Assembly (NCBI GenBank): GCA_963797095.1
Contig: CAWCNY010000001.1
Span: forward strand, 512,001-576,000
Reading direction: 5' to 3'
DNA length: 64,000 nt
Source: an uncultured Chloroflexia bacterium
GTDB lineage: Bacteria; Chloroflexota; Chloroflexia; QHBQ01; JADMIH01
A program made the translations under genes and the position numbers. Below are positions 17,758 through 43,423 of this stretch, one piece after another. The notes under the pieces were generated by a model. It worked only from the letters and a program-made list of their open reading frames with translations. It ran no database searches and was not told the origin of the DNA. Each line of letters starts with the position of its first letter. Position 1 is the first letter of the stretch.

Positions 17758-17838
17758 ACTGCTCCTTCGTTATGAGAGGACAATCGTGTCAGCGCCCAAA
17801 GTCTCAAAAAGTATACAATTAAATCCCGTCCAGATCCC

Positions 17839-19305: not shown

Positions 19306-19459
19306 CAGATCCCAGCGTCTTGACGCGTCTCATAACATGTCTCATAATCCGATTATCATAGCTTCTTAAGGTTTCTGAGACGACCCCCCTCAGACAATAG
19401 GATAGACAACAGGAGAATCGAAACAACAAAATAGACAGTAGCCCAGAGAACGGGAGCAT

Positions 19460-20023: not shown

Positions 20024-20131
20024 ACCCTAAAATGCACCGTTTTGGGGGGATATGCAAAAACCTCCATATAGCACACGAGCGGATGGGAGTTTCTCGGCTC
20101 ACGATAAATAAGAGATAGAAGGGGGGATTGG

Positions 20132-21421: not shown

Positions 21422-21576
21422 TAGACATTAGTAGACATTGGGGAATCGGGGCACGAGGTACTAAGCACGAGCAGTCGGAAGCGAGTTGTGTAGACAGCCG
21501 GGATGTGTGCGTTCCAGACGTGACGCAGCCCCATATAGTTGCGTAGGCAAGGGAAAAAGGAGAAAGGGAGAGAGCC

Positions 21577-24411: not shown

Positions 24412-26301
24412 ATGATAGCCCAATCAGGTTCTAGTATTCCCGTCTCTTCGAAAGACTACACGAGGCATAGCGATTCGGTCAGAGGAAATTGCTTTCTCAT
24501 AAAAGTAAATCACCACATACAGCAGTTCAACGGCACGATCTGCAGGAACGCTGCGAACGTTCAGTGCGGCGCGTCGGATACTTTCCGGTCGCAGTACTGC
24601 GCCCGGGGCCGAGATGAATGCTATGACATGTATGAGTTCGCTCCTCAGAACCCCTATTTTAGGAGGCGCATTAACTTCGATGGCGCCGAGTTGCTGGAGA
24701 GCATAAACACCGGCGACTTGCTCATCTTTTGGACCTATCAAACTCACAACAGAGGTTTCAGCAAGCAGATAATTACGGGTGTCTACCTGGTTGATGTTAT
24801 TGATGTGGACGACAACCTTCTACCTCCGGTTTACACCTTTTACCCGAAATCAGATCAGTATGCCTATATCGATTTTCCCCTGCCTGGGGAACAGATAATC
24901 CGGCGAGCGCTTGGACCTTATGCGTGGGTGAAGCAGCTTGGCTCGAACGACATCGGCTGGGCATTGAACCTAATCCACGAGGACCTCGATAGCCAGGCTC
25001 GTCAGATGCAGGGACGGAAGAGTTATGATGAGCAGATCGACGTACTCGACGCATTGCTCAAGCAATTCGATACCGACGAGAGTTCGCCGATGTATGCCAA
25101 GCTAGCCGAGGCAGGCGTGCTGGATATGCCGGTTGCCCCATCACTGGTTGCTGCGCCTACTACCGTTACTACCGTTACTACCGTTACTCCACCGGGAGAG
25201 CCAAAGCCTGCGGCCATAGCTACCGGCTCAGCAGCCACTTCACCAGCTACTATAAATGCACCAGCACCAGCAACTGTAGACCACAAATCACCAGTCGAGC
25301 GGCTTTCAGAGACCGCAGCCAGCAATCAGCTCCATTACCCCCTCCCGCTACTCACACGCTTCCACATATCAATGGCAACCCACCCCATTGTCGTCCTGAG
25401 TGGGCATTCTGGCACCGGCAAAACGCAACTCGCCCGCATTTACGCCGAAGCCGAAGGCGCAAGCTTCGGATTGGGTAAGGTACAGCCTGACTGGGTAAGC
25501 CCATCCTACTTGTGGGGAGCTTACGACTATCTTGCAGGAGCCTTTGCCGCGACGGAGTTTGCTGCTATGGTCCGTAAAGCTGGCGACGAGTGGGAAGATG
25601 CCAGGCAGCAGGGGCGGGAGCCGACAAAGTTCGTGCTTTGCCTGGACGAGATGAACCTGGCCCGGGTCGAGTACTACCTGGCGGATGTGCTCTCTGCTTT
25701 GGAGCAGCCGCTTGGCAGTCGCTGGATCGACCTATACAGTCCGGCACTCAACGATGCACGAGGGTTTCCATCTCGACTGCAACTCACTCCGAACATAAGA
25801 TTCGTTGGAACAATCAACGTGGATGAGACTACTTACAGTCTCAGCCCGAAAGTCCTAGACCGCGCTCACATGCTCCGCCTCGACCAGGTGGACCTCTCCG
25901 CTCTAAGGGCGCTGTTGGGAAGCGAGGGAAGCATCAGCTCTGAAGTTTTGGACTTCGTCTTCTTGCATCTTGGCGAGATACACCGGCGTATGACTGATGA
26001 TCCCACGCAGCAGTTTGGTTACAGAGTCGCCCGTCAGATAGCGGAGTGGGTGGCCGTGGCCACACAGGAGCCGTACAAGATGCCTATAGAAACCGCCCTG
26101 GACGCTGAAATCGCTCAGAAGATATTGCCCAGGCTGCAAATCGATCCAGATAGCGACATGCATATGGCGATGTTTGAAAAGCTCTTCGCCTATTTCGAGC
26201 AGTTCGAGCGGATTACGCCTGGCTTCGATGAAACGTTGCGGTGGATGCATGGCAGACGTGAGCGGCTAAATCTTGCGGAGGCAGTCAGTGGACAGCAGTA
26301 A
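24412..26301 (+). CDS. mcrB: McrB-like AAA+ GTPase (NxD type) with a Cys-rich N-terminal domain
   Basis: GHSGTGKT, LDEMNLARVEYY, GTINVDE, LSPKVLDRA. The N-terminal ~220 aa are separated by a P/T/A-rich linker. Confidence 0.85.
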   Translation: MIAQSGSSIPVSSKDYTRHSDSVRGNCFLIKVNHHIQQFNGTICRNAANVQCGASDTFRSQYCARGRDECYDMYEFAPQNPYFRRRINFDGAELLESINTGDLLIFWTYQTHNRGFSKQIITGVYLVDVIDVDDNLLPPVYTFYPKSDQYAYIDFPLPGEQIIRRALGPYAWVKQLGSNDIGWALNLIHEDLDSQARQMQGRKSYDEQIDVLDALLKQFDTDESSPMYAKLAEAGVLDMPVAPSLVAAPTTVTTVTTVTPPGEPKPAAIATGSAATSPATINAPAPATVDHKSPVERLSETAASNQLHYPLPLLTRFHISMATHPIVVLSGHSGTGKTQLARIYAEAEGASFGLGKVQPDWVSPSYLWGAYDYLAGAFAATEFAAMVRKAGDEWEDARQQGREPTKFVLCLDEMNLARVEYYLADVLSALEQPLGSRWIDLYSPALNDARGFPSRLQLTPNIRFVGTINVDETTYSLSPKVLDRAHMLRLDQVDLSALRALLGSEGSISSEVLDFVFLHLGEIHRRMTDDPTQQFGYRVARQIAEWVAVATQEPYKMPIETALDAEIAQKILPRLQIDPDSDMHMAMFEKLFAYFEQFERITPGFDETLRWMHGRRERLNLAEAVSGQQ

Positions 26302-28144
26302 TCTAGAACAAACAGCTTTTGCTGCCTCTGAAGTGCCGCTTGATTGGTGGGCTGCCGTACATCTGGCGCTCGGTACGCGCGCACTTGAATGGGGCGGTGA
26401 GTACGAGGTCGACAGTACAACACCTCTGAGCCTAACACTGCGTTGGCCCGCCGTTACATCTCATTTAGGATCGCTGCTCGGGCTGCAACTTCATCTGCCT
26501 CCTGATCCTGAGGCCGAGGCGGGCTGGCGCGCCCAGGGAGCTGCCGGGATCGCCATACAAATGGATCCTGCTCGAGAGGATCACCGCACGGTCACTTCTC
26601 AGTGGCAGGCGCAATTTGCCAACCGGCGCTACACAGGTGAAACAGTGGTGTCGCTCACACTTTCCGGACAAGCCGTAGCGGGGGCAGATTGCGTGATCAT
26701 TTACCGCCTCGACACTTCTGACCAGGCTCGGTATGAGTATATGCGTCAGTGGCTTGAGAAACAGCAGGAGGGCAGGGCAGTAACAGATCAGGTGATCGCT
26801 ATCCTGGCCCAAGCATCTTTGCCGACAACGTACAGCCGTCTTGAGGCCAAGTGGGACGCGCTGCGGAAGGCCCATGAGCATCTGTCTGCTGCATTGCCAC
26901 CGATCCTTGCCAGCCCTAACGTGGTGCTCAAGCGTGCCGACCGAGTCGTCGAATGGACTGAGTGGATTGGGCGTCATGACCTTTCACGGGCGTTACCCGA
27001 ACCTGGCACCACCTGGATGCGAATGCCCTCTACGTCGGGGTTAGGTGGCGGCGAGGCCGAGGTAAAGGTGCTGCCACGCCGCCTCGTGCTGCGAAACACG
27101 GTACGCAGTTTTGATGTCTCGGCTAATCGATACGTAAGGGACACCGTCGACATGCTTGTGGACGAAGCGCGCGCAGTTGAGCGCGAGGCCGCAAAGCGTA
27201 TGACCCAACTGCAGCAGGAATCCGCGATCGCGATGCACCCACGTTGGAAGGCACGCTTCCTCAATGCCCTTGTACATTACGAAAGTCTGGCTGCGAAGGC
27301 CCGTAGCCTGCGCAAGCGCGCAAATCACCAATGGATCGTATCCAGTTTTCTGGGTGACATAGCACCCGCCCAACCGAAGGCGAGTGACCTCGTGTGGCGG
27401 GACAACACCTATTACAGGCACGTACGGACAATTCGGGCAACTCTGGAGCGCGAATTGCAGGCCGCAGAAAATGCGCTATTTATGGATCGAGTAGTGACTG
27501 GTACTGCTAGTATCAACGAAATCTTCGAGGTGTGGCTAGCTGCTATCGTGTTGCGAACGCTTACAGAGGAACTAGGGTGCCAGTTGCTAAGGAAAGGTGG
27601 CAGACCAATAGACAGAAAGAGCGACCGCCCGCCAAGTTACTTGCTCAACCGTGGTTCATCGGCGGAGCTGTTCAGTCCGATCGGGCGGCGACTGGTCGTG
27701 CGCTTCGATACCGAATATCCGGCAATTCGGTCAGAAACCGATCTATTGTGGCGTGAAAGACTGTTGAGTTATGGGGTCGATCGGCGTAGCTGGCCCGGAG
27801 CAAAAGGGAGACCCGACATTGCAATCGAGGTATGGGATGATGAGCAGCGTGTGCAAGTACCTCGAATAATCGTACTGGACGCGACCTGGAGCAGCCGCCT
27901 TGAAACGCATATTGAGAAGTTTCTGTACCGCGAAACCATTAGAGACTTCACCACAGTCGAGGCCAGTGGTAAGCCTGCCCGCCCTGTAATCGCATCATGG
28001 GTTGTCTACCCTGGGGATCCGAATGAAGTCGACCATGAAGACGATTACCGGACCGGGCGTTTGCCAATCGAGCCTGGACCGGGTTGTGAAGCCATTCTGC
28101 TTACATATTTGCAGCAATTCCTGAAGATTGCGGGTGGGTATTGA
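26273..28144 (+). CDS. mcrC: McrC-like DUF2357 / PD-(D/E)XK nuclease partner
   Basis: Overlaps mcrB. SFDVSANRYV and NTYYRHV are DUF2357-like segments; IFEVW and RPDIAIE...IIVLDAT form the nuclease core. Confidence 0.75.
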   Translation: MRRQSVDSSNLEQTAFAASEVPLDWWAAVHLALGTRALEWGGEYEVDSTTPLSLTLRWPAVTSHLGSLLGLQLHLPPDPEAEAGWRAQGAAGIAIQMDPAREDHRTVTSQWQAQFANRRYTGETVVSLTLSGQAVAGADCVIIYRLDTSDQARYEYMRQWLEKQQEGRAVTDQVIAILAQASLPTTYSRLEAKWDALRKAHEHLSAALPPILASPNVVLKRADRVVEWTEWIGRHDLSRALPEPGTTWMRMPSTSGLGGGEAEVKVLPRRLVLRNTVRSFDVSANRYVRDTVDMLVDEARAVEREAAKRMTQLQQESAIAMHPRWKARFLNALVHYESLAAKARSLRKRANHQWIVSSFLGDIAPAQPKASDLVWRDNTYYRHVRTIRATLERELQAAENALFMDRVVTGTASINEIFEVWLAAIVLRTLTEELGCQLLRKGGRPIDRKSDRPPSYLLNRGSSAELFSPIGRRLVVRFDTEYPAIRSETDLLWRERLLSYGVDRRSWPGAKGRPDIAIEVWDDEQRVQVPRIIVLDATWSSRLETHIEKFLYRETIRDFTTVEASGKPARPVIASWVVYPGDPNEVDHEDDYRTGRLPIEPGPGCEAILLTYLQQFLKIAGGY

Positions 28145-28299: not shown

Positions 28300-29241
28300 T
28301 CAACTTCGGCTTACCACCTCCGAATGCCGAGATGGGATACGCTTATAGCGGGTAGGAAGAAAATGGAACATCCAACGCATGAGTGTTTGCCAGGCGTAAG
28401 TTGCGTTGAACTCCGGCTGATTCCTACATGGAAGCGTCCGCAGAAAGTTGCAGACAGCCCCAAACCGCTGCAACTCAATGAGGAACTCGTCTACCGCTCT
28501 GACAATCGGCTTCTGTAGTAGTAACACGCCTATGCAGGCCTCGAATGCAGCCCGTGGCAGCCCTGACTGTACGGGAAGCTCGACAAGTTCCACTTCCGCC
28601 ACCGCCTGCGATGCCGCAGTCAACTCGTGGAGGCGCCCTGAATACGCGACATACAAGTCGGCAGGATCACGAAGCTTTGGTAGCCAACTCTCCTGAGACA
28701 CTGGTTGAAACTGCTCATTAGGGGATTCGCCTGTGACAGCAGTTTCGCCTGAAGGAGCAGGCGGAGTAGGGATGTATTGCCGTACTAACTCGACAGCAGC
28801 AACCGTGTGGTTGTAGAGGTCATCATCAACCTTTATGCAGCCTATGAACAACTCGGTTTCAAATGACTGGAGCTCTCCTGCAGACAAGGGCACTAGCAGT
28901 TCGAGGTTTGGCTGACTTGACCAACCTAATGCAGTTGCCGTGAGGTTTGCTGATCCTACTAGGCAACTATCATCGGCCCTGTAGTATTTCGCATGTAAAT
29001 CGGACCGAAGCCACAATGATGCACCGGACCGAGCCCTAAGTAATGGCCAAACCTCCAAGTCGCTAACCCCAATGGCGATCTCATCCGTTCGCCACCGCGT
29101 CACGCACTTTATCGGGAGATCATTCTCCACCAGTGCCAGTAAACGCGCTAATGTTCCTGCCTTAACGAATGGGGCGACCAGCAGTATGTTTCGTCGCCCC
29201 GCTCGGCACAGTTGCTCTAGTTGTATACCTAGCGCTGTCAA
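28300..29241 (-). CDS. Phospholipase D-family nuclease (single HKD motif)
   Basis: VAPFVK, LHAKYYRADD, LVGSANLT. Probable TTG start at 29241 overlaps the upstream stop (TTGA). Confidence 0.88.
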   Translation of the reverse strand: MTALGIQLEQLCRAGRRNILLVAPFVKAGTLARLLALVENDLPIKCVTRWRTDEIAIGVSDLEVWPLLRARSGASLWLRSDLHAKYYRADDSCLVGSANLTATALGWSSQPNLELLVPLSAGELQSFETELFIGCIKVDDDLYNHTVAAVELVRQYIPTPPAPSGETAVTGESPNEQFQPVSQESWLPKLRDPADLYVAYSGRLHELTAASQAVAEVELVELPVQSGLPRAAFEACIGVLLLQKPIVRAVDEFLIELQRFGAVCNFLRTLPCRNQPEFNATYAWQTLMRWMFHFLPTRYKRIPSRHSEVVSRS

Positions 29242-31028
29242 TCCTCTCGTTCCAGAAACATCCTTGCCATCTTCCCCCAATCGGAACGAGCATCCTGTGC
29301 ACGTCTCCTAGGCTGACCATCAGGTTGCTCATCTTCATACCGCGCCCATGCCGACAGCAACAGTTTAAGTCCATCAGAGGCTAGGTTCAGGCGCTCCTGC
29401 AGTTTGTCGGCGTCTATGGTGTCTTCCTCCCTCTCAAGTACCTCTACCAAGTGTTGGTAAGCAGGATGATTTGTGTTTAATATGATAACGATAGCACCGC
29501 CTCTCGGCTTAACAGTGAAAAAGGCCGGCATCTCTAGATCTGCCTGTGCGAATAGGTACTTCAGCCCATCACCCACCGTTGTTGCCGCCATCTGCTTGGC
29601 AGCCTCCTCCGGCACACCTTCATCAAGTAGTGTGCGCTCAATATCGGCTTCACGCTGCTGAGGTGACAGATTCTCGTCCTTATCACTTTCGCCTTTATAG
29701 CCCTCATGTTGGCGCTCACGAGTAGCATTTGTCGCTATAGCCTCAGGAGATGTGGGTGCATGGCGCTGCTCTTTAGTTCGCACTCCCTTCGTCTGCTGCC
29801 TCAACCATGTACGCATCTGTGAGAGGTTCGTGCGTATACGTTGTGCAATCTCCAAAAGGGGAGCGCGGGGGTCCTCATCTTCACGCATCTCTGCTATGGC
29901 TGCTGCACTTGTCTCTAACTGACTCAACTCGCTCAATTCGGCGAAGTTCCGCGCCGCTTGCTTGTTGTTCGTAACACCAAATAGCTCGTCCAATGCAGGG
30001 GGAAACTCCACCTCGATGCCCCACCAACGCTCTACTGGATCGTAGTGGATTATCCATGATTGATCGAGGTCTAGCTCTCGTGCTGCTCGCACAATCGAGA
30101 CACCAGTGTTCTTGGCTGCGTGCTTCCCGTGTGGTTGCGACCCGGGATTCTGACCTTCCCGTGCTTCCTTCTTGGCAAGAGAGAAGCGCGTCTTGACAAT
30201 GTGTTCCTGCCCACGGAAGCTTACTGTATGCGAGATCTCATAATATTCATCACTCGGCCATGGATTGAACATGGCTATATCGTGGAAAGGTGGAGGACAG
30301 GATGTGTGCTTCATTAAGTACCCTGGGTCATTTGGCAGCGCGTCCGCCTCACTTTGTTGGAAACTGGGATTGTCCGCGTCAAACGCAAGCATACGAATTC
30401 TGACCTGCTTATTATCTAGGAAGCGTCTATACATTCGGCCTATCAGGAATTCGGAGTTCTCGATAATTGCGCGAGCCGTACGCCACATGATACGGTCTAG
30501 ATCCGACCAGACTACCAATGTACCACTCTTCTCAAAGGTAGCACCAACCTGGCGCCACAGATTAGGAATCTCTACGTGCCTGGGATCGGGAATAGCTGTC
30601 TGCTTCTTGGTGCGGATTTCATTGACATCCAGGTATGTATATAGGGACGAGTCCGGACCGTCCTGCCAAGACCATACTTCTACTCGTGTGCATTGTGAGA
30701 TTGATGCGCTAGGCAGGCCCATTCCGAACTTGCCCATGCCCTGCTGTTCGGCCGGGACGAGGTGCATACCATTGCCAAACTGTAGAGCAACCTTCAGTAC
30801 ATGAGCATCCATTCCACAACCATTGTCAAGTACGGCAATCTGATGAATGCGGGAGCGCTGGCGAAGCTCAATAATTGAAGTACGCTCGGCACAGAGCAAT
30901 TCGACAACCGTTGCTCTGGCCTGAATTGAATTATCCATCAACTCAGCAATAGCATAGGCCGCGTTCTTATAGCCGTTGTCACGCATTGCCTGCACTGCAA
31001 GATGAGCAGGCACAATCTCTTCGCTCAT
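29238..31028 (-). CDS. GHKL/MORC-family (HATPase_c) ATPase
   Basis: AIAELMDNS, DNGCGM, GKFGMG, SGTLV Bergerat-fold motifs, and LDELFGVTNNKQ in an S5-like region. ATG at 31028 overlaps the helicase stop (ATGA). Confidence 0.9.
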   Translation of the reverse strand: MSEEIVPAHLAVQAMRDNGYKNAAYAIAELMDNSIQARATVVELLCAERTSIIELRQRSRIHQIAVLDNGCGMDAHVLKVALQFGNGMHLVPAEQQGMGKFGMGLPSASISQCTRVEVWSWQDGPDSSLYTYLDVNEIRTKKQTAIPDPRHVEIPNLWRQVGATFEKSGTLVVWSDLDRIMWRTARAIIENSEFLIGRMYRRFLDNKQVRIRMLAFDADNPSFQQSEADALPNDPGYLMKHTSCPPPFHDIAMFNPWPSDEYYEISHTVSFRGQEHIVKTRFSLAKKEAREGQNPGSQPHGKHAAKNTGVSIVRAARELDLDQSWIIHYDPVERWWGIEVEFPPALDELFGVTNNKQAARNFAELSELSQLETSAAAIAEMREDEDPRAPLLEIAQRIRTNLSQMRTWLRQQTKGVRTKEQRHAPTSPEAIATNATRERQHEGYKGESDKDENLSPQQREADIERTLLDEGVPEEAAKQMAATTVGDGLKYLFAQADLEMPAFFTVKPRGGAIVIILNTNHPAYQHLVEVLEREEDTIDADKLQERLNLASDGLKLLLSAWARYEDEQPDGQPRRRAQDARSDWGKMARMFLERED

Positions 31029-32638
31029 TCTTCCCTCCAAACATCTTCCCAGTTGCCAAAGGCTTCAGCCATGCTGCCGAATCCTGGCAACTCAGTATCG
31101 ACAACGGTTACGACTTCCGCGTCGACGTTTCCACCTACCTTCGGCCCCCTGGTCGCTCGACCCACCATTTGACTATAAAGCACTAACGACTTCGTGGGTC
31201 GTGCTATGAGGGCCGCGCTTGTTTTAGGTGCATTAAAACCTGTGGTCAGCACGCCATAGTTGCAGATAATTCTAGGGTCATCGCCTTCCCCTTTGTAGCG
31301 CGCGAGCAGGCGACTTCTCTCAAGGGATGACGTGGTTCCTGTCACAGCGGCTGCATCGTGCCCACGCGCGCTAAGTACAGCTGCCAGTAAATGTGAGTGC
31401 TCCACTGACGCCGCAAAGATCAGCACCCGTTTATGCCTCCTGATAAGTTTCTCCACCTCCACTATGATCGCGAGATTGCGCTGATCGTCCTCAGCAAGCC
31501 GCTTTAGTATTCTTTCTGGGATATCTAGCTCCTGCCCTATCTCCTTCATGTCTGCGGAGCTCAAGCCTAAGCCGCTACCACTTGGCAGTGTTCGGTAATT
31601 GACACGGGCTAAGTAGCCCTCGGCCACGAGGTACGCAATAGGATTGGTGTAACCCTCAATCCTGAGTCCGACTTTGTGCCGACCAAAGTAGTCGGACAAC
31701 TCTGCGTCAGCACTAGGATCATTCCAGGTCCGGCCCGGTGTGGCGGTAAGCCCTAATAGGCCTGCCGCCCGACCTTGTGTCACCAGCATATCAAGCACTA
31801 ATCGGTAAGCTGGAGCAATTGCCTGATGAGCCTCGTCGATAATGACTAGCGTACATCGGCCTGCTAGCGTTCCCAATAGGGACGATCCTTGGCGACCTGC
31901 AATGAACAGCTTCGCAAGCCCAGCAATGACGATGCCATCCGATGCTCGTTCAAGCTCCAATGAATGGGGACCCCAGAATCGGTTTACATTGACTTCACGA
32001 TCCCCCAAGACGGCCCAGGTTGATTCGAATTCCGATGCAGCCTGCTCGCACAACTCTTCGCTGTAGGCTAACCAAACCGCCAACGCCGGCTCTTGGGTGC
32101 GGAGATGATCTGCAATTACCTGCATGGCCATTCTGGTCTTGCCAGCACCTGTGGGCATGTGCAAGAGCACCCGATGCGGTTCCTGGCTCAGTGCGGTTCG
32201 TACCTCACGCACTGCGGTACGCTGGTGTTCAAATAGTGAAAGCTCGCCTATGACGGAACCACTTGAGGGTACATAAGCGACTTCATTTGGTGCAGGAACG
32301 ACCAACTCGAAGAACTCAAATAACAGACGTTCGCGCTCTGAGCCTCTTCGAATCTCGATGGAGCGTAGAGCAGCGAAAACATCCCCACTGTTCTTCAAAC
32401 CCAGGGCATTTGCTAGCCTGTTTGCCTCAGGGGTGCGCAAGAGGTCTAGCAGAAGCTCGCGGCTTGTACGACTAATGAGGAGATCCTCACGTGAGCGCAA
32501 TTGGAGCATGATCTCACTAAGATTGCCAGGATTCACAGAACGTGAGTCGAGTAACCCGAGCAGTCGAATAGTAGGCCCGCCAAGTAAATCCTGGAGGGTC
32601 GCGTCATCGGCTCGGGATAGTAGATCATCGAACTTCAT
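31025..32638 (-). CDS. SF2 DEAD/DEAH-box helicase (ResIII-like)
   Basis: MPTGAGKT, IIDEAH, LTATP, NYGVLTTGFNAP, QMVGRATR. Confidence 0.92.
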   Translation of the reverse strand: MKFDDLLSRADDATLQDLLGGPTIRLLGLLDSRSVNPGNLSEIMLQLRSREDLLISRTSRELLLDLLRTPEANRLANALGLKNSGDVFAALRSIEIRRGSERERLLFEFFELVVPAPNEVAYVPSSGSVIGELSLFEHQRTAVREVRTALSQEPHRVLLHMPTGAGKTRMAMQVIADHLRTQEPALAVWLAYSEELCEQAASEFESTWAVLGDREVNVNRFWGPHSLELERASDGIVIAGLAKLFIAGRQGSSLLGTLAGRCTLVIIDEAHQAIAPAYRLVLDMLVTQGRAAGLLGLTATPGRTWNDPSADAELSDYFGRHKVGLRIEGYTNPIAYLVAEGYLARVNYRTLPSGSGLGLSSADMKEIGQELDIPERILKRLAEDDQRNLAIIVEVEKLIRRHKRVLIFAASVEHSHLLAAVLSARGHDAAAVTGTTSSLERSRLLARYKGEGDDPRIICNYGVLTTGFNAPKTSAALIARPTKSLVLYSQMVGRATRGPKVGGNVDAEVVTVVDTELPGFGSMAEAFGNWEDVWREE

Positions 32639-32709
32639 CAGCTATTTAAGAACACCCACAGCTTTTACTTGGAGTACACAGCGTGCCCACTTTGGATTCA
32701 CATGAGGAG

Positions 32710-33891
32710 CTACCGTACCGAGGACTGAACAGTATGAAGGCGCTCTGCTGCCCGAATGATAGCGTCAGTAGCGTGGGCGACTTCGTCATCGGTAGTGAAT
32801 CTTCCCACGCCAATGCGCACGGTGCTGTATGCGTCTTCTCTGCTCAGCCCTATCGCCAACAGCACGTATGAGGGTTCTGGGGCTCCGCTAGTACAGGCAG
32901 AGCCCGTGCTTAGCGCTACCTGAGGCGTATTAGCTATCAGCGCTTCGGCGTCCAGTCCTGGGAATGTAAGGCTGCTGTTGCCAGGTAGGCGTGCGTGAAC
33001 AGCTCCGTTGCGCCGGGCAGCAGTGAGAGCGTTCATCAAAACACCTTCGAGCCTATCTCGCAGCTCGCTGACACGAGCTGCTTCGGTTGGGAGCGAATCC
33101 ATATATAGCGCGCACGCGGCGCCCAGCCCGACAATGCCTGGCACATTCAGAGTTCCAGGGCGTAGATCCCGCTCCTGGCCTCCTCCAAAAACCAGGGGCT
33201 GCATAGGGAGTGAGTATGCACCGCCCCTGATGTAGAGCGCACCAACTCCTTTCGGTCCATATATCTTGTGGGCGCTCAAGGACAAGAGGTCTACATCGCA
33301 CGCATCGACATTGACCGGGATCTTACCTACCGCCTGCGCGGCGTCACTATGCACAAGAGCCCCTTTGTCGTGGGCTAGAGCAGCGATCTCGGCCAGGGGT
33401 TGAATTGTCCCTATTTCGTTGTTTGCTGCCTGTACTGAAACCAATAGCGTATCATCTGTAATCGCACTCTTCACAGCGATCATTTCAACGCGCCCGTCCG
33501 CGCCAACCGGTAGCAGGACTAGCTCGAACCCTTCTTTCTCGAGTTGGTGGCAGGGTTCGAGCACGGCCTTATGTTCGATAGAAGTCGTAACGATCCGCCG
33601 CCGGACATGACCGCCTCTCAACTCTGCAATACCCGCCATACCCCGGGCCAGCCCTAATATTGCCAGGTTGTTGCTCTCAGTGGCCCCTGACGTGAAGACA
33701 ATCTCACCAGGTTGAGCCCCTAGCAAATCAGCCACATGCGCTCGCGCCGCTTCAACCGCAGACAATGCCTCGCGCCCAGCTGCATGGAGTGTACTTGAGG
33801 CGTTTCCAAAGGTATGTCCAAAGAAGGGTAACATTTGTTCCACAACCCTCGGATCACATGGAGTCGTGGCATGGTAGTCTAAATAAATCAT
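32710..33891 (-). CDS. sspA: Cysteine desulfurase (IscS/DndA/SspA type)
   Basis: MIYLDYHATTP (ATG 33891), TSGATE, SAHKIYGPKG (PLP lysine), STGSACTS (catalytic Cys). Lies within the ssp operon. Confidence 0.9.
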   Translation of the reverse strand: MIYLDYHATTPCDPRVVEQMLPFFGHTFGNASSTLHAAGREALSAVEAARAHVADLLGAQPGEIVFTSGATESNNLAILGLARGMAGIAELRGGHVRRRIVTTSIEHKAVLEPCHQLEKEGFELVLLPVGADGRVEMIAVKSAITDDTLLVSVQAANNEIGTIQPLAEIAALAHDKGALVHSDAAQAVGKIPVNVDACDVDLLSLSAHKIYGPKGVGALYIRGGAYSLPMQPLVFGGGQERDLRPGTLNVPGIVGLGAACALYMDSLPTEAARVSELRDRLEGVLMNALTAARRNGAVHARLPGNSSLTFPGLDAEALIANTPQVALSTGSACTSGAPEPSYVLLAIGLSREDAYSTVRIGVGRFTTDDEVAHATDAIIRAAERLHTVQSSVR

Positions 33892-33907
33892 TAAGTGCCT
33901 CGCACTA

Positions 33908-34720
33908 TTATAGCTGACAGACCAGACAGCCGCCATCGTCGTCTAAGCTGTCTGGCTCGCCTGTGAACATCTCGGCCAGCGTCTTCGGCCTTCTGCGGGC
34001 GGCCGCCTGCGTCTTTCGCTTCTGTTCCTCGCGCTGGATCTGCTCGACACGTTCTGGTCGAGCGAGTTCTTGCAGGCTCTCGTGCTGAGCCCAAGTATAT
34101 CCTTGCTCAGGCTTCTCATAGCCCTTCGCGCTCTCGTACAGTTCAGGGTGCTTCTCAAGTAAACCCACCCACTCCTTCTTCCGCTGAAAGAAGCAGAAAT
34201 AGCACCCCGAACGGGTGCGCCACTCGTAATACTCAGGCATGCCTATCCCACTATCATCTAGAATTCGGAACACGTCGTCTTTTGTTATGCCATCTTCCTT
34301 GAAGGGGAATACCGGGGTTATTGTGGGTTTGGTGCTGATATATCCTTCGCGGTTCTCATCACTTCGAATGGCGACATAAAGATTCACCGGGTCGTCGCCA
34401 ACATACTGCTCAAACGGTTCTATCTTGAGCTTACGCGTACACCAGCGGACGCTCGGAGAGGGCAGAAATCCTCCATACATATCGAGCCAGTGGTCAAAAC
34501 CACGATCTCCTAGGCCGCTAGCTAGCCGTGTGATAGGCTTTTCCAGATAAGCTTCAACTCGAGTCAGATATTCGTAGGTCTCGGGCAGTTCCTTCTGGGT
34601 ATCACAGAAGAGATACTCCATATCTATTTCTGGGTGATGGTCCCGCATATAGATAGCGAGCCCTGTGCTGTCTTTGCCACCGGACAACAGCAATATGTTA
34701 CGTCGCAGCTTCTCACTCAT
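33908..34720 (-). CDS. sspD: PAPS-reductase-family protein (SspD/DndC-like)
   Basis: SGGKDS PP-loop, RWCTRKLK, RSGCYFC, C-terminal CLVC. ATG at 34720 overlaps the upstream gene end. Confidence 0.9.
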   Translation of the reverse strand: MSEKLRRNILLLSGGKDSTGLAIYMRDHHPEIDMEYLFCDTQKELPETYEYLTRVEAYLEKPITRLASGLGDRGFDHWLDMYGGFLPSPSVRWCTRKLKIEPFEQYVGDDPVNLYVAIRSDENREGYISTKPTITPVFPFKEDGITKDDVFRILDDSGIGMPEYYEWRTRSGCYFCFFQRKKEWVGLLEKHPELYESAKGYEKPEQGYTWAQHESLQELARPERVEQIQREEQKRKTQAAARRRPKTLAEMFTGEPDSLDDDGGCLVCQL

Positions 34721-37700
34721 TATCGTGCCCTCCCTGGCCACCGATGTCTCGGCCACCGATGTCTCCCATGTCTCCCAGATAGCGCATTGCAGCCTGGGCG
34801 AGGGCGGCTATACGCACCCTGCGTGCCTCCTCACTACCGTCCGTGCCTTGGCTCAACAGCGTGCTTATACGTTCCGTAAGGGCGTCTACAGAAGCAACTC
34901 GCTCAGGCGTCAAAGCAACGATAGCACGCGCTTCCTTAATGTGGCCGTTTAGTAACCCAATGCGCAGGACCTGGGTCGCGCCCGTGAGCTGTTGCTCTGT
35001 CACCAACTCTTCCAACCGGACAAAGTCGCTGGCTATCTGGCGCAGCCGTAAACCGAAGCCCACAGCGTCCGGGTCTCGCCATTGATTGGGAGGCGTGCCC
35101 TGGTTAACCACACGTCCTAGCACTTCTCGCCACTCGCGACCTTCCAGGCGGCTGGACTCGCGTATGAACAACGTCAGGGTCTGCTCGGCGGACGTTCCTT
35201 CGATGGCTGCAGCCCTTCGTTGGAGCTGGCTACGCACGCTGTCAGACGATCCTTGCAGGTCGAACACAATCCGCACTTGCTCCTCTATCTGGTCCAGAAG
35301 CTTGTGATAGGCGTGCTGTAGAGCCAACAAGCAGTCTTTGAGCAGGCTGGCGAAAGAACCGCCCGGGTCCCACCGCAGCGAGGGGAGCCCCAGTGCTCGT
35401 GGCAGGTCCACAAACAGTAAGGCGTACGGATCGGCGGACCGCAACAGAATATCGCGGACCGCCACAGCCTGTGGCGGCTCTAGCTTCTTCGTGTTCTTAG
35501 CATATTGAGGCAGGTGCGCCGCGAACAGCACGAGGGGTTTTACCACCCCTAGCAGTTGCGAAGCACTATCGTCTTCTTTGAGCGGCCCTTGCACCGTTTC
35601 GAGTATGTCAGTAATATCGGCGAACGCCTGCCGGTCTTCATCCGACACCACAAACTGCTGAATTTCAAAGGCTTCCGGTACACGGAGTAACCGCTCGATA
35701 ACTTCGACCCTTAGTTCCGGCACGAACACCCCGCCGTCGTAGAGCGCCACATCGTCCTTATGCGCCAGCAGTAGGGCGCACGTCAGGAGAGGAACGACCC
35801 CCTCGCGGAGGCCGAACGGAGCGCGTCTCAATCGGGAAGCTATCTCAAGGATTGGTCGGCGGTTGCTGTGTGTCTCTTGCAAGAATTCGTTTAGCGTGTG
35901 CCACACGGGTAGCCAGGTGCTGTTCGGTTCCCCTAGCTGCAGGCGCCCGCCCCGGAAGCCGTGGAAGCCGCCATCTTGTAGGAGCGACCGATACATGCTC
36001 ACTTCGGGAGGGTTGCCTGTGAAGCCGAGGGTTGGCTCCCCTTCTCGACTCAGCATAGCTTCGAGCAGGTTGCGTCGAGCTTTGGCAGCTGAAGATGACA
36101 GATGATCGCGGTTGAGCAGCTCGTTACGCAGTACTGGGGCCTGGTTGTATACCTGATCGCAAAGCTTCGAGATCCACTGCGAGAAGCTCCTCGCGGAATG
36201 TAATTCGTGCAGTGTGCCCCCTTGCACCCATTCGCAGGCCGATACATCTAGCGAGTAGCCGCGGAGACCAAGTACGGAGCCAGCTAGGCTCTCCAGCCGC
36301 TCTATCGCCTGTCTCAGGCGCGCCTTCACTTCTTGCCTTGCCACAGGATCGCCCTGCAGCCCCGGGACATTTGAGGTCACCCACTCCCAGCTTTCGACTT
36401 CCCGCAGAGCCTCTTCCAAACCAGTCATCGGCCTAGGGAACGCCAAGATACGGAGGCGATGCTCAGGCTGTTGGCTGAACGTCAGCTCTTGCGCGTATTT
36501 AATGAGAGCCTCGCGCTCGGCGTCGGCCGGGGTAAGGACATAAAGTATCTGGCCGTCGGCTGGGGTAAGAGGCTGGTTGAACGTTTGGCGAAGGGTCAAT
36601 GGATCGCCATCAATTAGATCGACCGAGAAATAGCGGAGTGTGCCACGCTTGATGTAGTGAGAGCGCGCCACCAACGGGCGCACAGCAATTGACGCCTTAA
36701 GGCGCTCGGCCAGCCTACCATGCCCAACCATCTGTAGGGCTTCCTGGATAGCGGTGTCGAGGTCGACGTCCGAACCTTCCCACAGCGCGTAGGCGTCTTC
36801 GTGGCGCCTGTAGACCAATATCGAGGCGCGTTGTAGGTGAGCTATGGCTTCGTTCACGCCCTCGCGATTGCCCAATGCTAGCGCGATAAGCTCTTGCGAA
36901 GCCTTCAGGCCAACGGCCGCCCCGTAAAGGTTGAGTAAGCCAACAGTCTTAATAACGGCAGTCGCAAGGCGTGGGGCACCGACGGTAACTCGCTCCAGGG
37001 CGTTCTCTATCTCCGACCAGCGCCTGGCTCGATCTCCGCGATAGATAGCAGCGCCTAACGCAGTAGTAACGTAGTCATACAGATCGTCGCTGCGGTAGAA
37101 GGGTGGTAAACCCTCGCTCCAGGTGATACCTGCTAGAAACTGCTGGAAGCCGAACGGCTCTCGCCCCGTGAGAAAAGCGAATAAAGACCGCTCATTCTGG
37201 GCTAGCTTACTCCGGAACAGGGGCCACAGGAGCAGGGCAGTCACCGGGTGCAAAGGCGCACAATTCGCCAGCAATTCGCCTAAGGCCGGGAAGCGCTGTC
37301 CCACCTCACCAAAAGGTGGTGCTTGTACAACCTGCTCCGTCGCGTAGATATAGCTTGTCTCCAAGTCAGTAGGCATCTCACGGCCTATCGCAGCCCCTAC
37401 CAGGCGTAGGAGCTGCTCTGGTGGCTCTTGGAAAGCGACATCAGTGAAGCGACCTTGAACTTTCTGCCACTCCCTGCGGCGTAAGTCGTCGAGCGTATCA
37501 AGATAGTCAGCAAATGACGCATGAAGTATTGTGACCAGCAGGATGGGGATGGTACTTCTGGCCGCTGCCTCTGCCAAGTGCTGCATGACTAGCAGGTCTT
37601 CGCTTTCCGGATGCTGGGACGCATGCTCGAGGAGCTTGCCAAACTCGTCAATAACCAGTAGCAGCCCACCATAACCCCGTGCTCTAGATGCCCGCGCCGC

Positions 37701-38195
37701 TGATTCGACCAGAGTTAAAACGTGGTCTCCTTGCCCTCCAGCACTGTCGGCGGTGGCTGGGTAGAGGGTATCAAAATCCTCGGTAAGTCCAAGGGTCACT
37801 GGCTCGACCGCCTCACGCAGTGCGGACATAATCGTGGGTACGAGCGGGGCGCGCTGCCCTACACACAGCATGGGCAAAAAGGGAGGTAGGTCAAACCCTA
37901 CGCTTTGGCGTAGAGGGTAGCTTTGAGGGTGTTCCGGGGTAGCTTGGGCCAGCAGATCCGTCAAAAAGAGAGCGAAGGCGGATTTCCCAGTCCCATACGG
38001 CCCAGTAATGGACCAAGCCCGACTGCCTCCAGGTATCTGCAGACCAGCTAGCATCTGAGTCGCCAGATCACGGGCGGTCGGTGTCAGAAGATACTCGTGG
38101 ACACTTCGCGGGTTTTTCCAGTCCTTGGCTATTTGCACAGAACGATAGAATCTCCCTCTGACAGTTACTGCTTCGTGGAATGCTACTGCAGTCAT
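34713..38195 (-). CDS. sspC: Large P-loop ATPase (SspC/BrxC-like)
   Basis: ITGPYGTGKS, LLLVIDEFGK, EWQKVQGRF, AQNERSLFAFL. Sits between the DUF4007 and PAPS reductase genes. Confidence 0.85.
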   Translation of the reverse strand: MTAVAFHEAVTVRGRFYRSVQIAKDWKNPRSVHEYLLTPTARDLATQMLAGLQIPGGSRAWSITGPYGTGKSAFALFLTDLLAQATPEHPQSYPLRQSVGFDLPPFLPMLCVGQRAPLVPTIMSALREAVEPVTLGLTEDFDTLYPATADSAGGQGDHVLTLVESAARASRARGYGGLLLVIDEFGKLLEHASQHPESEDLLVMQHLAEAAARSTIPILLVTILHASFADYLDTLDDLRRREWQKVQGRFTDVAFQEPPEQLLRLVGAAIGREMPTDLETSYIYATEQVVQAPPFGEVGQRFPALGELLANCAPLHPVTALLLWPLFRSKLAQNERSLFAFLTGREPFGFQQFLAGITWSEGLPPFYRSDDLYDYVTTALGAAIYRGDRARRWSEIENALERVTVGAPRLATAVIKTVGLLNLYGAAVGLKASQELIALALGNREGVNEAIAHLQRASILVYRRHEDAYALWEGSDVDLDTAIQEALQMVGHGRLAERLKASIAVRPLVARSHYIKRGTLRYFSVDLIDGDPLTLRQTFNQPLTPADGQILYVLTPADAEREALIKYAQELTFSQQPEHRLRILAFPRPMTGLEEALREVESWEWVTSNVPGLQGDPVARQEVKARLRQAIERLESLAGSVLGLRGYSLDVSACEWVQGGTLHELHSARSFSQWISKLCDQVYNQAPVLRNELLNRDHLSSSAAKARRNLLEAMLSREGEPTLGFTGNPPEVSMYRSLLQDGGFHGFRGGRLQLGEPNSTWLPVWHTLNEFLQETHSNRRPILEIASRLRRAPFGLREGVVPLLTCALLLAHKDDVALYDGGVFVPELRVEVIERLLRVPEAFEIQQFVVSDEDRQAFADITDILETVQGPLKEDDSASQLLGVVKPLVLFAAHLPQYAKNTKKLEPPQAVAVRDILLRSADPYALLFVDLPRALGLPSLRWDPGGSFASLLKDCLLALQHAYHKLLDQIEEQVRIVFDLQGSSDSVRSQLQRRAAAIEGTSAEQTLTLFIRESSRLEGREWREVLGRVVNQGTPPNQWRDPDAVGFGLRLRQIASDFVRLEELVTEQQLTGATQVLRIGLLNGHIKEARAIVALTPERVASVDALTERISTLLSQGTDGSEEARRVRIAALAQAAMRYLGDMGDIGGRDIGGQGGHDNE

Positions 38196-39226
38196 ACCGT
38201 TCGCACCTGTGCATGTTCGCTATCTAAAGCCTGCTTGAAGTACCTTGCTAATGTCGAGAAAGCAGATAGGTCTTGGCGTGAGTAGTCGTTGCCATCGTAG
38301 CTTGGGCGCATGACCAATCGGCGTCCGGCCGTTTCGTCATAGCTCAATGGGCACCACCTGGGCAGCTCTTCTAAATATGCCGCCAGAGCATTCTCGGATA
38401 ACTTGAAAGCCGCACCCGGGCTTCCGCCGCCGTATTGGATCGACTCGAAAGAGAGTGTGCGCTGTGAGGGTGCAATTCGCTCCCAAAACTCTAACAAAGC
38501 ATACACAAAAATAGCCTGAGGCAATGCGGGTTTTGGGCCGCGCACGAACTCGTAAACGCCACGCTCGACTTCCCGGATCAGCCCCAGTTCGACCAGTGGA
38601 CAGTCGAATGTATCTTCCAAGGGCAGATCACGGGTCGCATGTGCGGGGGTGTAGGTGCGGATGAACACTTCGACATCCCTACGGACGGAAGCCGTAGTCG
38701 CTCGCACTAGCGGCGTCTGCTGGACCCGCTTCATTAGCCATTCAGTCAGGCTGTCACGGGTGAATGTAGGCTCATGGAACTGGGTATAGGTCAGATACCA
38801 GGTTGAGGCCCTATCCCGGCGACTTACTAGAAGCCAATGAAGTAACCATAGCGTGCCTGGATCCTCTAAATATGGGTCCCAGCCCCCATCGCTGAAGAGC
38901 GCCTGGCCCAAGGGAGTAGTTTGGACTACCTTCCCCCGGTCGGCGGACTGTATCAGCCTTAGCGTCTCGCACCAGAAGCGTATAGAAGTGACCATGTTCT
39001 TACCGACGCCCAGGATGACCATAGCGTCGTCACGGGTAAAGAGGTTAGGGTAGCTCTGCAATCCTTGTACGCCTTTTGGCAGCCAGGCATAGCGTAGTGG
39101 AAACGTCTCGTGCCCACTGAAGCTGTAGCGGCCCGTGTCGACCGATGACATGGCCACGCCGGACAGAGGGTTGTCGCTTTGTGTACCGAGAAAGTTAGTC
39201 ATTAGCGTCGGGGTATCGGGTAGCAA
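38192..39226 (-). CDS. sspB: DUF4007 family protein (SspB-like)
   Basis: FSGHETFPLRYAWLPKG, LGVGKNMVTSIRFW, DPYLEDPGTLWLLHW, CPLVELGLI. ATGA overlap with sspC. Confidence 0.9.
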   Translation of the reverse strand: MLPDTPTLMTNFLGTQSDNPLSGVAMSSVDTGRYSFSGHETFPLRYAWLPKGVQGLQSYPNLFTRDDAMVILGVGKNMVTSIRFWCETLRLIQSADRGKVVQTTPLGQALFSDGGWDPYLEDPGTLWLLHWLLVSRRDRASTWYLTYTQFHEPTFTRDSLTEWLMKRVQQTPLVRATTASVRRDVEVFIRTYTPAHATRDLPLEDTFDCPLVELGLIREVERGVYEFVRGPKPALPQAIFVYALLEFWERIAPSQRTLSFESIQYGGGSPGAAFKLSENALAAYLEELPRWCPLSYDETAGRRLVMRPSYDGNDYSRQDLSAFSTLARYFKQALDSEHAQVRTV

Positions 39227-39434: not shown

Positions 39435-40352
39435 TCACCGACCGAGATGAATGAGCGCCATAACAGTAGGCGTATTTCGCATCCTCACCAGCGTGGTCTC
39501 TACATGAAATCGGCCCTTGATTTGTTGGAAGTCAAGCACTTCATTGCACGCATCGATCTCACCGAAGATGCTCCCTCGTAGACCCTTCTGCAACGCCCGG
39601 TATATCGAGGTACTCGGAGGAATTGTCTCACTCGGGGCGAAGCACTTCCCAGCACTAGGTGAGTTCCACTGCCGCCACACGCGCAAATCAGCAGATGATC
39701 TCCATGGGGGCACATGATAGACCGAGGAGCCTTGATTAGACAGCATGGGCTGCGACCAGCGTAGCGTGCCCTCCTGAGCCAGGACGAAGATGCAAGGCGA
39801 CACATCAGCTTCCACCATTCGCCGCACGATTGGGGTCACCGACAACCTACAATCCCTTGCCCACTGGAACCCATAGGAAAGCCTAACTCTTCTGCTGCGC
39901 ACGACAGGGAAGAAGAGAGCCCCGGGTAACATGATCTCTGCAGCGCCCCAGTCGCACCAGAATTCTTTGTGCCTCCAAAGCTGCTCCATCTCCCCCCGAG
40001 TGTAGCGACCCGGCACCTCAGCACGAAGTGCGGCAAATAACCCTTCTACGAACTCGTGTGCTTTGCTGTAATTCTGTACTCCCGCGGGATCATCGCCGTT
40101 GATGACCATACGATTGCCCATCAAGAAACCACGCTGTTTACTGTCGCCGTCGGACAGCAACTCAACGCGGAGCCTGAAGCCGTGGTGCTCGATGAGACGG
40201 TCAATGTCCACGGGCAAGCGCCAAGTACCTGCGGAGCGGAGCATATACTCGGCATACTCCTGGACGAGGATGCGTGTGTCACGAGTCTCAGTCTGTCTGA
40301 GGAAAGCCTGCGGCGCATTAGGTAGGTTGAGGGCATTCGCTAAGTTCATCAT
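39435..40352 (-). CDS. ImmA/IrrE/CapP-like metallopeptidase-fold protein (variant HExxE motif)
   Basis: LPVDID, VQNYSKAHEFVE, EFWCDWGAAEIMLP, then HTH-like and C-terminal regions. Immediately follows an XRE gene. Confidence 0.75.
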   Translation of the reverse strand: MMNLANALNLPNAPQAFLRQTETRDTRILVQEYAEYMLRSAGTWRLPVDIDRLIEHHGFRLRVELLSDGDSKQRGFLMGNRMVINGDDPAGVQNYSKAHEFVEGLFAALRAEVPGRYTRGEMEQLWRHKEFWCDWGAAEIMLPGALFFPVVRSRRVRLSYGFQWARDCRLSVTPIVRRMVEADVSPCIFVLAQEGTLRWSQPMLSNQGSSVYHVPPWRSSADLRVWRQWNSPSAGKCFAPSETIPPSTSIYRALQKGLRGSIFGEIDACNEVLDFQQIKGRFHVETTLVRMRNTPTVMALIHLGR

Positions 40353-40384: not shown

Positions 40385-40786
40385 CTATCGAGCCTCTTCT
40401 TCCTCTTCTAGCATTGCTTTAATCACCGAGTATATCGCCCGCCACTCACGCGGAGTAGTAGGCTTCCGCCCACGGTACTCTATCTGGGCCAGCATAGTGA
40501 GCTCACGAGTGCTCAACCCTGACTGCTCCGCAAATTCCTGAAGGCTAGCTGGTATTTCTACTGCGTCGAACCGCTCGCCCAGTAACTCACTGGGCCTGGC
40601 ATCGAGCGCATCTGCAAGCTTCTTGATCTTATCCTCGGTTGGAGCGCTTTCACTACGCTCGATTTGGTACAGGTAACTGCGTGAGATCTTTGACTTCTCA
40701 GCAAGGTCGCTGAGGCTCCAGCCTCTCTTCTCACGTAATTGGCGGACCCGATCTCCAATCTTCTCATTAGGCACTTGTTCAGGCAT
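40385..40786 (-). CDS. XRE-family HTH transcriptional regulator
   Basis: IGDRVRQLREKRGWSLSDLAEKSKISRSYLYQIER. Confidence 0.92.
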   Translation of the reverse strand: MPEQVPNEKIGDRVRQLREKRGWSLSDLAEKSKISRSYLYQIERSESAPTEDKIKKLADALDARPSELLGERFDAVEIPASLQEFAEQSGLSTRELTMLAQIEYRGRKPTTPREWRAIYSVIKAMLEEEEEAR

Positions 40787-40821: not shown

Positions 40822-40940
40822 ATTATAAAGGCCGACGGAAGCGGCGTCAATATAGCGGTACGATATTCTCCGGTATTGTGGAAAAACCTCTTGACGCCGC
40901 TGTCGTTATAGCAGTATGCTTATGTACGTAATATCGTACA
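40822..40940. promoter_or_regulatory. Back-to-back sigma70-type promoters with a palindromic operator
   Basis: Minus strand TTGACG(40850-45)-17-TATAAT(40827-22). Plus strand TTGACG(40891-96)-18-TATGCT(40915-20). Palindrome TGTACG-taatat-CGTACA at 40923-40940 and related GTACGATATT at 40858-40867. Confidence 0.7.
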
Positions 40941-43376: not shown

Positions 43377-43423
43377 GTAGCTGTCCGGCAACGTGCCGGA
43401 CCTGCAGTGAAAGCGCTACCCAC

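Follow-up and report, generated by a model that had tools for sequence, protein, structure and literature searches.

A helicase–MORC–PLD gene trio beside the Ssp phosphorothioation genes of an uncultured Chloroflexia bacterium: a candidate restriction arm

Gene content of the operon

Seven co-oriented and tightly packed open reading frames (ORFs) run head to tail on the minus strand from position 39226 down to 28300 of the 64,000-nt stretch of DNA analyzed here (the window, from contig CAWCNY010000001.1 of an uncultured Chloroflexia bacterium); all coordinates at this locus are window positions (Table 1). Judged from their sequences, the first four genes are a complete Ssp phosphorothioation (PT) module, made up of SspB, SspC, SspD, and the desulfurase SspA. 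The three genes that follow, referred to below as the trio, encode a superfamily 2 (SF2) helicase, a MORC-type ATPase, and a nuclease of the phospholipase D (PLD) family, and their association with Ssp genes is the subject of this report. A first-pass annotation of the window had assigned the same seven families in a single orientation, and Pfam and PADLOC searches recovered every one of them in place on the minus strand. The SspC match extends over residues 16–1098 of the protein and positions 1–1063 of the 1065 in the PADLOC model, with a further match to BrxC at 1.7e-132, and SspD is distinct from DndC (PADLOC SspD 1.7e-114 vs. DndC 9.8e-5).

The same annotation had proposed start/stop overlaps at sspB/sspC, sspC/sspD, helicase/MORC (ATGA), and MORC/PLD (TTGA), with gaps of only 16 and 71 nt elsewhere, and inspection of the junctions agrees on each point. 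The sspB and sspC genes overlap in an ATGA at 38195; the likely sspD start, an ATG at 34720 with GGGAGG ahead of it, lies within the end of sspC; and an alternative sspA start at the ATG at 33891 gives the 16-nt spacing from sspD. Following sspA, 71 nt separate the Ssp genes from the helicase gene, which in turn overlaps the MORC gene in an ATGA with its ATG at 31028. The PLD gene begins within a TTGA, at a TTG at 29241 preceded by GAGAGGA.

Table 1. Features of the seven-gene operon and of its surroundings in the window
Feature	Position	Strand	Support
sspB (DUF4007)	38192..39226	-	344 aa (longest ORF); Pfam DUF4007 5.7e-85 over 36-307; PADLOC SspB 2.8e-91
sspC, BrxC-like large ATPase	34713..38195	-	1160 aa; PADLOC SspC E=0, 1221 bits
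sspD, PAPS-reductase-type enzyme	33908..34756	-	PADLOC SspD 1.7e-114 (full model); Pfam PAPS_reduct 1.3e-6
sspA, IscS/NifS-type cysteine desulfurase	32710..33936	-	Aminotran_5 2.8e-78; PADLOC SspA 2e-147, DndA 3.7e-147
DEAH SF2 helicase	31025..32638	-	ResIII 3e-22; Helicase_C 3.3e-10
MORC-type GHKL+S5 ATPase	29238..31028 (longest ORF to 31040)	-	596 aa from ATG 31028; HATPase_c_3 2.3e-20
Single-HKD PLD-family nuclease	28300..29241 (longest ORF to 29280)	-	313 aa from TTG 29241; PLDc_2 7.5e-5
XRE-type helix-turn-helix (HTH) protein, CapH-like; possible local regulator	40385..40786	-	HTH_3 1.6e-17; PADLOC capH 1.5e-14
CapP-like protein, possible partner of the HTH protein	39435..40352	-	PADLOC capP 4.2e-13; no Pfam family at 1e-3
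Sigma-70-like promoter match, just upstream of the HTH gene	40822..40850	-	TTGACG-17-TATAAT, 11/12
Six-gene kinase cluster	42006..50385	+	
McrB-like ATPase pair	24412..28144	+	
McrB-like ATPase pair	50339..54117	+	
Transposases, resolvase, and SbcCD-like pair	14482..24189		

Identity of the helicase, ATPase, and nuclease

The helicase has a RadD/Rad25-like core at residues 133–500, with an N-terminal domain of about 130 aa ahead of it. Its Walker A motif (residues 162–168), DEAH box (268–271), motif III, and motif VI do not vary among the 33 sequences aligned. Rows L003, L035, and L078 were dropped from the alignments because of an internal stop codon in the referenced stretch. By sequence, the closest solved relatives are RadD of E. 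coli (1.7e-38) and then SauUSI (3.2e-18). SF2 enzymes of the RadD, Rad25, and type I/III restriction class are DNA translocases. The N-terminal ~130 aa returned no Pfam match, and an ESM Atlas search with residues 1–132 gave a best score of 0.79, below the level of a lead.

The GHKL (Bergerat-fold) motifs of the second protein (E29, N33, D68-x-G-x-G72, and G99–G104) are invariant across 38 aligned sequences, and its C-terminal region of about 170 aa is conserved. Its structure was predicted at a mean predicted local distance difference test (pLDDT) of 83.1, and residues 1–414 of the model align to the ATPase modules of SMCHD1 (Z 20.7), MORC3 (Z 20.2), MORC2 (Z 18.4), and MutL (Z 17.9). The only solved relatives found by sequence are eukaryotic MORC2 (the best, at 1.6e-6), MORC4, and MORC3; together with the structural alignments, these identify the protein as a MORC-type GHKL+S5 ATPase. 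In MORC and MutL ATPases, binding of ATP leads to N-terminal dimerization, and the proteins clamp or loop DNA.

The third protein scores 23 bits against PLDc_2, under the Pfam cut-off of 27 bits, but its predicted fold (pLDDT 92.3) confirms membership in the PLD family, and H83, K85, S97, and N99 of the HxK…GSxN motif are invariant (34 aligned sequences). Its N-terminal domain (residues 1–150) aligns to the nuclease domain of SauUSI over 139 residues (Z 16.4, root-mean-square deviation 2.1), the best solved match and one also found by sequence (E 1.5e-5), and further to NucT (Z 15.1), Nuc (Z 14.8), and BfiI (Z 14.2). All four are PLD-family nucleases; NucT, Nuc, and BfiI carry a single HKD motif and act as dimers, as single-HKD nucleases need two monomers to build each active site. 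Residues ~182–313 form a winged-helix, DNA-binding-like domain that aligns to the ArsR-type winged HTH protein CzrA (Z 8.0) and to BrxA (Z 7.1), values in a commonplace range. The idea that this is an SspB/BrxA-type domain was not borne out, as profile–profile comparison of the PLD family with SspB gave a probability of 0.1% and an E value of 0.49; for these two reasons, we describe the domain only as a generic winged-helix fold. A predicted complex of the MORC and PLD proteins scored 0.00 in two runs, which amounts to no answer from the predictor.

Comparison with known partners and defense systems

The trio was scored against PADLOC at E<0.01 and against NCBIfam (June 2026). None of its proteins matched the PADLOC models for SspE, SspFGH, DndFGH, or PglZ at this threshold; the names SspF, SspG, and SspH, for which the PADLOC library presumably includes models, were absent from the matches. 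The best PADLOC matches were instead to the helicase part of PbeA for the helicase (1.8e-21, model positions 250–439 of 672), to the N-terminal GHKL part of MzaB for the MORC protein (2.1e-19), and to DrmC for the PLD protein (1.4e-9). Against NCBIfam, bit scores fall far below the curated cut-offs (RadD 104 vs. 720; MzaB 77 vs. 850; DrmC 26 vs. 133; and, for the helicase, TIGR04095 42.8 vs. 600, at 3.3e-11), so NCBI has no specific name for any trio protein. No Tdp-named chain appears among the matches of the three proteins to Protein Data Bank sequences.

The first-pass annotation had seen neither an SspE-like nor a PglZ gene at this locus. This absence holds and extends to the whole source genome (93% complete), which has no match to SspE (PADLOC PDLC02783), DUF262 (PF03235), or PglZ (PF08665). 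The possibility that the three proteins might turn out to be SspFGH or another described partner finds no support in PADLOC, in NCBIfam, or in the composition of SspFGH as given in PMC8092258. Taken together, these sequence comparisons support the view that the trio is not SspE, SspFGH, DndFGH, PglZ, a full PbeA, or a DISARM set.

The closest framework is that of the SspABCD systems, and SspABCD–SspE is reportedly a PT defense system described in 2020 by Xiong. Both SspABCD–SspE and SspABCD–SspFGH share with the present operon the same SspB, SspC, SspD, and desulfurase, here matched at full length, and the same layout, in which a restriction cassette sits beside sspBCD and the two move horizontally together. 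The cassettes themselves differ: SspE is a DUF262/DUF1524 protein unrelated to a DEAH SF2 helicase, a MORC GHKL ATPase, or an HKD nuclease, and SspFGH consists of a Walker A protein (SspF), an unknown protein, and SspH with an FtsK/SpoIIIE-like C-terminus (PMC8092258).

The trio itself recalls operons described by Iyer, Abhiman and Aravind in 2008 (PMC2292703), which combine MORC-type GHKL+S5 proteins with Rad25/RadD-like SFII helicases and an HKD or restriction-endonuclease-fold nuclease that varies among operons; the prediction was that they act as restriction arms, with the GHKL protein looping DNA between recognition and cleavage sites. In those operons the partner is a DNA methylase and the HKD domain was described as fused to the helicase, whereas here the partner is the Ssp machinery and the HKD protein is separate and carries a winged helix. 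No methylase gene is present in the operon; SspBCDA occupies that place. PMC2292703 mentions neither PAPS reductase nor DndB.

Other systems combine some of the same parts. PbeA (TIGR04095, "DNA phosphorothioation system restriction enzyme") and SauUSI also join an HKD nuclease to an SF2 helicase, but as one polypeptide, whereas here the two are split with the MORC gene between them. PbeA is linked to PT of the Dnd type and works with a CxC ABC ATPase (PbeC) and a DndE-like protein (PbeD) (PMC10853773); homologs of PbeC and PbeD are not in the operon, and the PLD protein has no PbeA match in PADLOC. BREX type 4 (BrxP, BrxC, PglZ, BrxL) shares the module of BrxC-like ATPase, PAPS reductase, and DUF4007 (PMC12839542), yet it contains PglZ, which has no match in this genome; moreover, DUF4007 and PAPS reductase are separate genes here, and they match the Ssp models in PADLOC far better than BrxP (1.7e-114 vs. 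2.1e-7). DISARM comprises DrmA, DrmB (DUF1998), a methylase, and the PLD protein DrmC; the operon shows only the weak likeness to DrmC, with no DUF1998 and no methylase. In the Tdp system, TdpC alone makes PT and TdpAB restricts (PMC12914056).

The operon as a whole would act as an ATP-dependent restriction-modification system whose mark is PT. Its modification arm falls within the Ssp family; the candidate restriction arm falls within the MORC/SFII/HKD class of the 2008 prediction and looks like a PbeA or SauUSI that has been split, with a MORC protein inserted. The novelty lies in Ssp sulfur marks being paired with a MORC-centered restriction arm, and in how widespread this is. In the main texts of a largely open-access literature, our search turned up no report linking Ssp, sspBCD, or DUF4007 to MORC, GHKL, or HATPase. 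PMC10853773, PMC12839542, and PMC12914056 do not mention MORC or HATPase, nor do PMC12914056 and PMC8569181 mention a helicase.

Distribution and linkage to Ssp genes

The MORC protein belongs to a large and well-conserved family, with at least 4,051 proteins at E<=1e-3 among the 8,000 candidates scored; the 120 relatives listed are 59–100% identical to it over their full length. In contigs representing one genome per species, 584 loci encode a MORC relative. The best 80 were taken with up to 10 kb on each side and the window proteins were located in them by tblastn; a full-flank subset comprises the 51 loci whose flanks reach at least 9 kb on each side. In the best 80 of the 584 loci, the helicase was found in 71 and PLD in 45, and the latter is an undercount because two loci (L025 and L044) carry a PLD gene that tblastn missed. 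At least two of sspB, sspC, and sspD are present in 53 of these 80 loci, one in six, and none in 21, many of which are short contigs.

Of the 51 full-flank loci, 42 have sspB, sspC, or sspD within 10 kb (at least two of these genes in 39, one in three). Judging by record titles, the hosts include Cyanobacteria, Chloroflexota, Alpha-, Beta-, and Gammaproteobacteria, Myxococcota, Acidobacteriota, Bacteroidota, Rhodothermales, Armatimonadota, Bacillota, and Actinomycetota, and linkage to Ssp spans about ten phyla. In IMG/VR, an independent collection, sspA, sspB, sspC, and sspD accompany the helicase and MORC genes in five of five loci, at a MORC identity of 38–47%, with PLD directly downstream in four of the five. 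The worry that the trio might not be conserved beside sspBCD elsewhere is therefore dispelled for the helicase–MORC core, which is linked to these genes across many phyla.

The arrangement of the two blocks is not fixed. In 39 loci the Ssp genes lie upstream and share the strand of the other block; in 11 they lie downstream in convergent orientation, on the opposite strand; and in three they lie downstream without a change of strand. In a further locus (L087), the trio comes first, followed by sspA-B-C-D. Order and orientation that change while adjacency is kept are the pattern of separate modification and restriction units that are selected together.

In a sample of 401 genomes from the phylum of the source organism, SspD is present in 26 and the MORC family in six, and the four genomes with both have the two genes on one contig and at most 11 kb apart in every case, though one MORC copy is broken. 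The SspE model matched two of the 401 genomes, one of them SspD-positive.

A variable nuclease position

What stays constant across these loci is the helicase–MORC pair; the nuclease is exchangeable and may be a PLD, HNH, or PD-(D/E)xK protein, and a gene for one of the three adjoins the pair in most loci. In Nostoc-type loci (L006, 12120–12566) the MORC gene is followed by a 148-aa HNH protein (Pfam HNH 6.9e-14), and in Microcoleus loci (L020, 12030–12638) by a PD-(D/E)xK protein (PADLOC PD_DExK 4.5e-51). A metagenome-assembled genome of Pleurocapsa contains an in-frame MORC–PLD ORF of 885 aa (L068, 9983–12640); this fusion was seen only once and may be an assembly artifact. A search for fused MORC forms of at least 1,044 aa found none at E<=1e-20, which is weak evidence.

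The PLD gene was detected in 27 of the 42 Ssp-linked full-flank loci vs. one of the nine Ssp-less ones. A nuclease that is kept with Ssp and mostly lost without it is what would be expected if the nuclease is harmful when unpartnered.

A proposed PT-coupled restriction arm

Because the trio travels with Ssp genes in many phyla, it probably supplies a restriction arm, so far unnamed, to Ssp systems that had seemed to lack one. Our favored reading, which we hold with some confidence, is that the trio restricts in the classical restriction-modification sense and is coupled to the PT marks written by Ssp. Within that reading, we infer PT dependence itself, the mechanism, the formation of a complex, the identity of the PT-reading protein, and the direction in which PT acts (inhibiting or stimulating).

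The modification arm (SspB, SspC, and SspD with the desulfurase SspA) would place sulfur on the backbone of host DNA, as single-strand PT at a consensus such as C(PS)CA. The first-pass annotation had cast the MORC clamp and translocase as putative sensors of PT status that would license the PLD nuclease against unmodified DNA. The helicase–MORC core would load on DNA, survey it, and move or loop it using ATP. On host DNA, PT marks would halt or disarm this core, much as PT marks reportedly stop or disarm restriction by DndFGH. On unmarked foreign DNA, dimerization of MORC driven by ATP would unite two PLD monomers; cutting would follow only upon this pairing, because a single-HKD nuclease needs two monomers per active site.

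Three regions are candidates for a PT reader: the N-terminal domain of the helicase, the C-terminal region of MORC, and the winged helix of PLD. The first goes unmatched in both of the distant trios that occur without Ssp genes (see below). A more far-reaching version, in which a bacterial MORC protein reads or is gated by a backbone mark, the helicase–MORC core with its exchangeable nuclease forms a third major, phylum-spanning Ssp arm, and ATP-driven MORC dimerization assembles one HKD site from two PLD monomers only on unmarked DNA, is tentative and, taken as a whole, rather doubtful.

Counter-evidence and competing explanations

Several observations weigh against a PT-coupled restriction arm. 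We could link none of the trio's domains to a known sulfur-binding domain. Nine of the 51 full-flank loci have helicase–MORC with no ssp gene within 10 kb. One third of the Ssp-linked loci lack PLD or have another protein in its place; the expectation of a conserved helicase–HATPase_c–PLD trio beside Ssp genes stands for the helicase–MORC core, whereas PLD, detected in 27/42, is not a fixed member. Two distant helicase–MORC–PLD trios without Ssp genes (L085 in G050:C6, 7466–11705; L086 in G283:C1, 7779–11739) have MORC proteins 36–37% identical to that of the window and lie among transporter and housekeeping genes, showing that Ssp is not needed for relatives of the module to exist, or perhaps even to work. 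In both, the match to the helicase begins only at query residue 118–122, leaving the N-terminal domain unmatched. On either side of the L086 trio is an ORF (324 and 450 aa) without a Pfam family.

Five genomes with an Ssp-less helicase–MORC pair were tested further; four have DndC but no true SspD, and the fifth gives no SspD match. In four cyanobacterial loci (L081–L084, from the genomes of L024, L004, L020, and L007, respectively), an ORF of about 560 aa gives a weak and partial match to the SspD model (about 35 bits); the one that was checked, in L083, is a full DndC (4.8e-198) and adjoins an HNH protein. In these genomes the helicase–MORC pair might rely on PT made in trans by Dnd, or may be a remnant.

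Distances between MORC proteins correlate with those of the helicase (r 0.89, n 52), SspC (0.81, n 36), SspD (0.76, n 36), and PLD (0.64, n 35), and none of 2,000 permutations reached an observed value; since shared organismal descent alone would also be expected to give such correlations, they are consistent with co-inheritance and no proof of it.

The Ssp-less relatives (L085, L086, and the nine full-flank loci) are also what might be expected if the trio were an independent restriction module, either type IV (modification-dependent) or stand-alone, that merely shares defense islands with Ssp and does not read PT. In keeping with this, the window is a defense island with many unrelated systems and transposases, and the closest solved relatives of both helicase and PLD include SauUSI, a type IV enzyme. 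However, chance clustering does not readily account for adjacency to sspBCD in 42 of 51 loci and in all five IMG/VR loci, over some ten phyla and in several gene orders, given a low background (sspBCD in about 3% of genomes, PMC12914056; SspD in 26 of the 401 genomes of the phylum sample), nor for the single strand, 71-nt gap, and overlapping codons seen in the window. We therefore regard an independent module as unlikely.

A further difficulty for the PT-coupled reading is that 22 of the 26 SspD genomes in the phylum sample lack the MORC family, indicating that the MORC module is one Ssp partner among several. The same figure argues against a role for the trio as an accessory to modification or repair, with the helicase–MORC pair assisting SspBCD in scanning or opening DNA or processing the nick that sulfur insertion makes. 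Some Ssp-linked loci do have no nuclease directly after MORC (for example, L010, L018, and L030 have sspA there), and back-up effectors beside PT systems have been proposed (PMC10853773, PMC3506569), which would suit a variant in which the trio acts as a suicide back-up, its nuclease attacking host DNA if a phage inhibits Ssp. But in heterologous E. coli, PT needs no such genes in addition to SspBCD and a desulfurase (PMC8092258), and a nuclease gene lies beside the pair in most loci; an accessory or back-up function seems improbable to us.

One locus combines a MORC protein with an effector like the known SspE. L088 (G276:C6, 2318–12068) encodes sspB-sspC-sspD, an SspE-like DUF262/DUF1524 protein of 769 aa, a MORC homolog 42% identical to that of the window, and a 164-aa ORF; there is no helicase, and the DUF262/DUF1524 protein sits between sspD and the MORC homolog. 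This arrangement indicates that a MORC protein can accompany a PT-sensing effector. It also fits an account in which the trio is itself an effector of the SspE kind, with PT marks on the host stimulating its ATPase and nuclease instead of inhibiting them; the activated complex would then nick or block replicating phage DNA. All of the linkage evidence agrees with this account equally well, and SspE itself is stimulated by PT (PMC8092258, PMC9646914). Yet an SF2 translocase with a PLD nuclease resembles the ATP-dependent restriction enzymes SauUSI and PbeA and is unlike SspE, and the loss of PLD from Ssp-less loci suits a nuclease that is dangerous without the mark rather than one that is inert. 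An SspE-like mode of action is thus a minor possibility, and a PT-coupled restriction arm remains our preferred interpretation.

Significance for orphan Ssp clusters

Wang et al. (PMC8092258) report that 84% of 2,678 sspBCD clusters have no known partner and propose that further partners exist; this partnerless majority leaves open whether such clusters defend at all. If the reading of the trio as a PT-coupled restriction arm is correct, part of the orphan clusters would become testable restriction-modification systems. The scale is suggested by the 584 species-level genomes with MORC relatives and by the presence of MORC beside sspD in four of the 26 SspD-positive genomes of the phylum sample. 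The same reading would provide the first functional setting for a bacterial MORC ATPase against a defined DNA mark, would explain the swappable nuclease position, and would supply models to defense-annotation tools, which at present name none of the trio. Were the more far-reaching version also true, with MORC at the center of a third Ssp arm, a sizeable share of orphan sspBCD would be explained, and the link between eukaryotic MORC proteins and epigenetic marks would gain a prokaryotic precedent.

Genomic surroundings

The operon sits in a defense island bordered by transposases of the Tn3 and IS66 families and a resolvase. Directly upstream of sspB are the genes for the CapH-like HTH protein and the CapP-like protein (Table 1), which may put this copy of Ssp under damage- or phage-responsive control. 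As components of a conserved system they were rejected: tblastn found the one in a single locus of the 80 (on the opposite strand) and the other in none, and the pair would therefore be a local regulatory addition, if functional at all. The promoter match ahead of the HTH gene is treated as a lead only, because sigma-70-like matches are not enriched in the region (nine found vs. 8.1 expected).

Beyond these genes, on the plus strand, lies a six-gene cluster that looks like a multi-kinase defense system related to Mokosh or MADS. It encodes a NERD–Ser/Thr kinase (PglW 6.6e-51, mad6 3.6e-47), a second kinase (PD-T4-6 3e-49), a vWA protein, a PP2C phosphatase, a third kinase-like protein, and a 1102-aa SF1 helicase (MkoA 2.6e-107). 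The Ssp and kinase loci lie between two gene pairs, each made up of an McrB-like AAA_5 ATPase and a protein of unknown family; both ATPases match the PADLOC candidate PDC-M26A (9.3e-45 and 1.4e-46), and the order of the partners is reversed between the copies.

The island is probably mobile. At its border, the Tn3-family transposase (DDE_Tnp_Tn3 1.9e-123), the IS66 transposase, and the resolvase, of the serine type, lie beside an SbcCD-like pair consisting of a calcineurin-like phosphoesterase and an 870-aa SMC/Rad50-like ATPase with a weak match to LmuB (3.5e-23).

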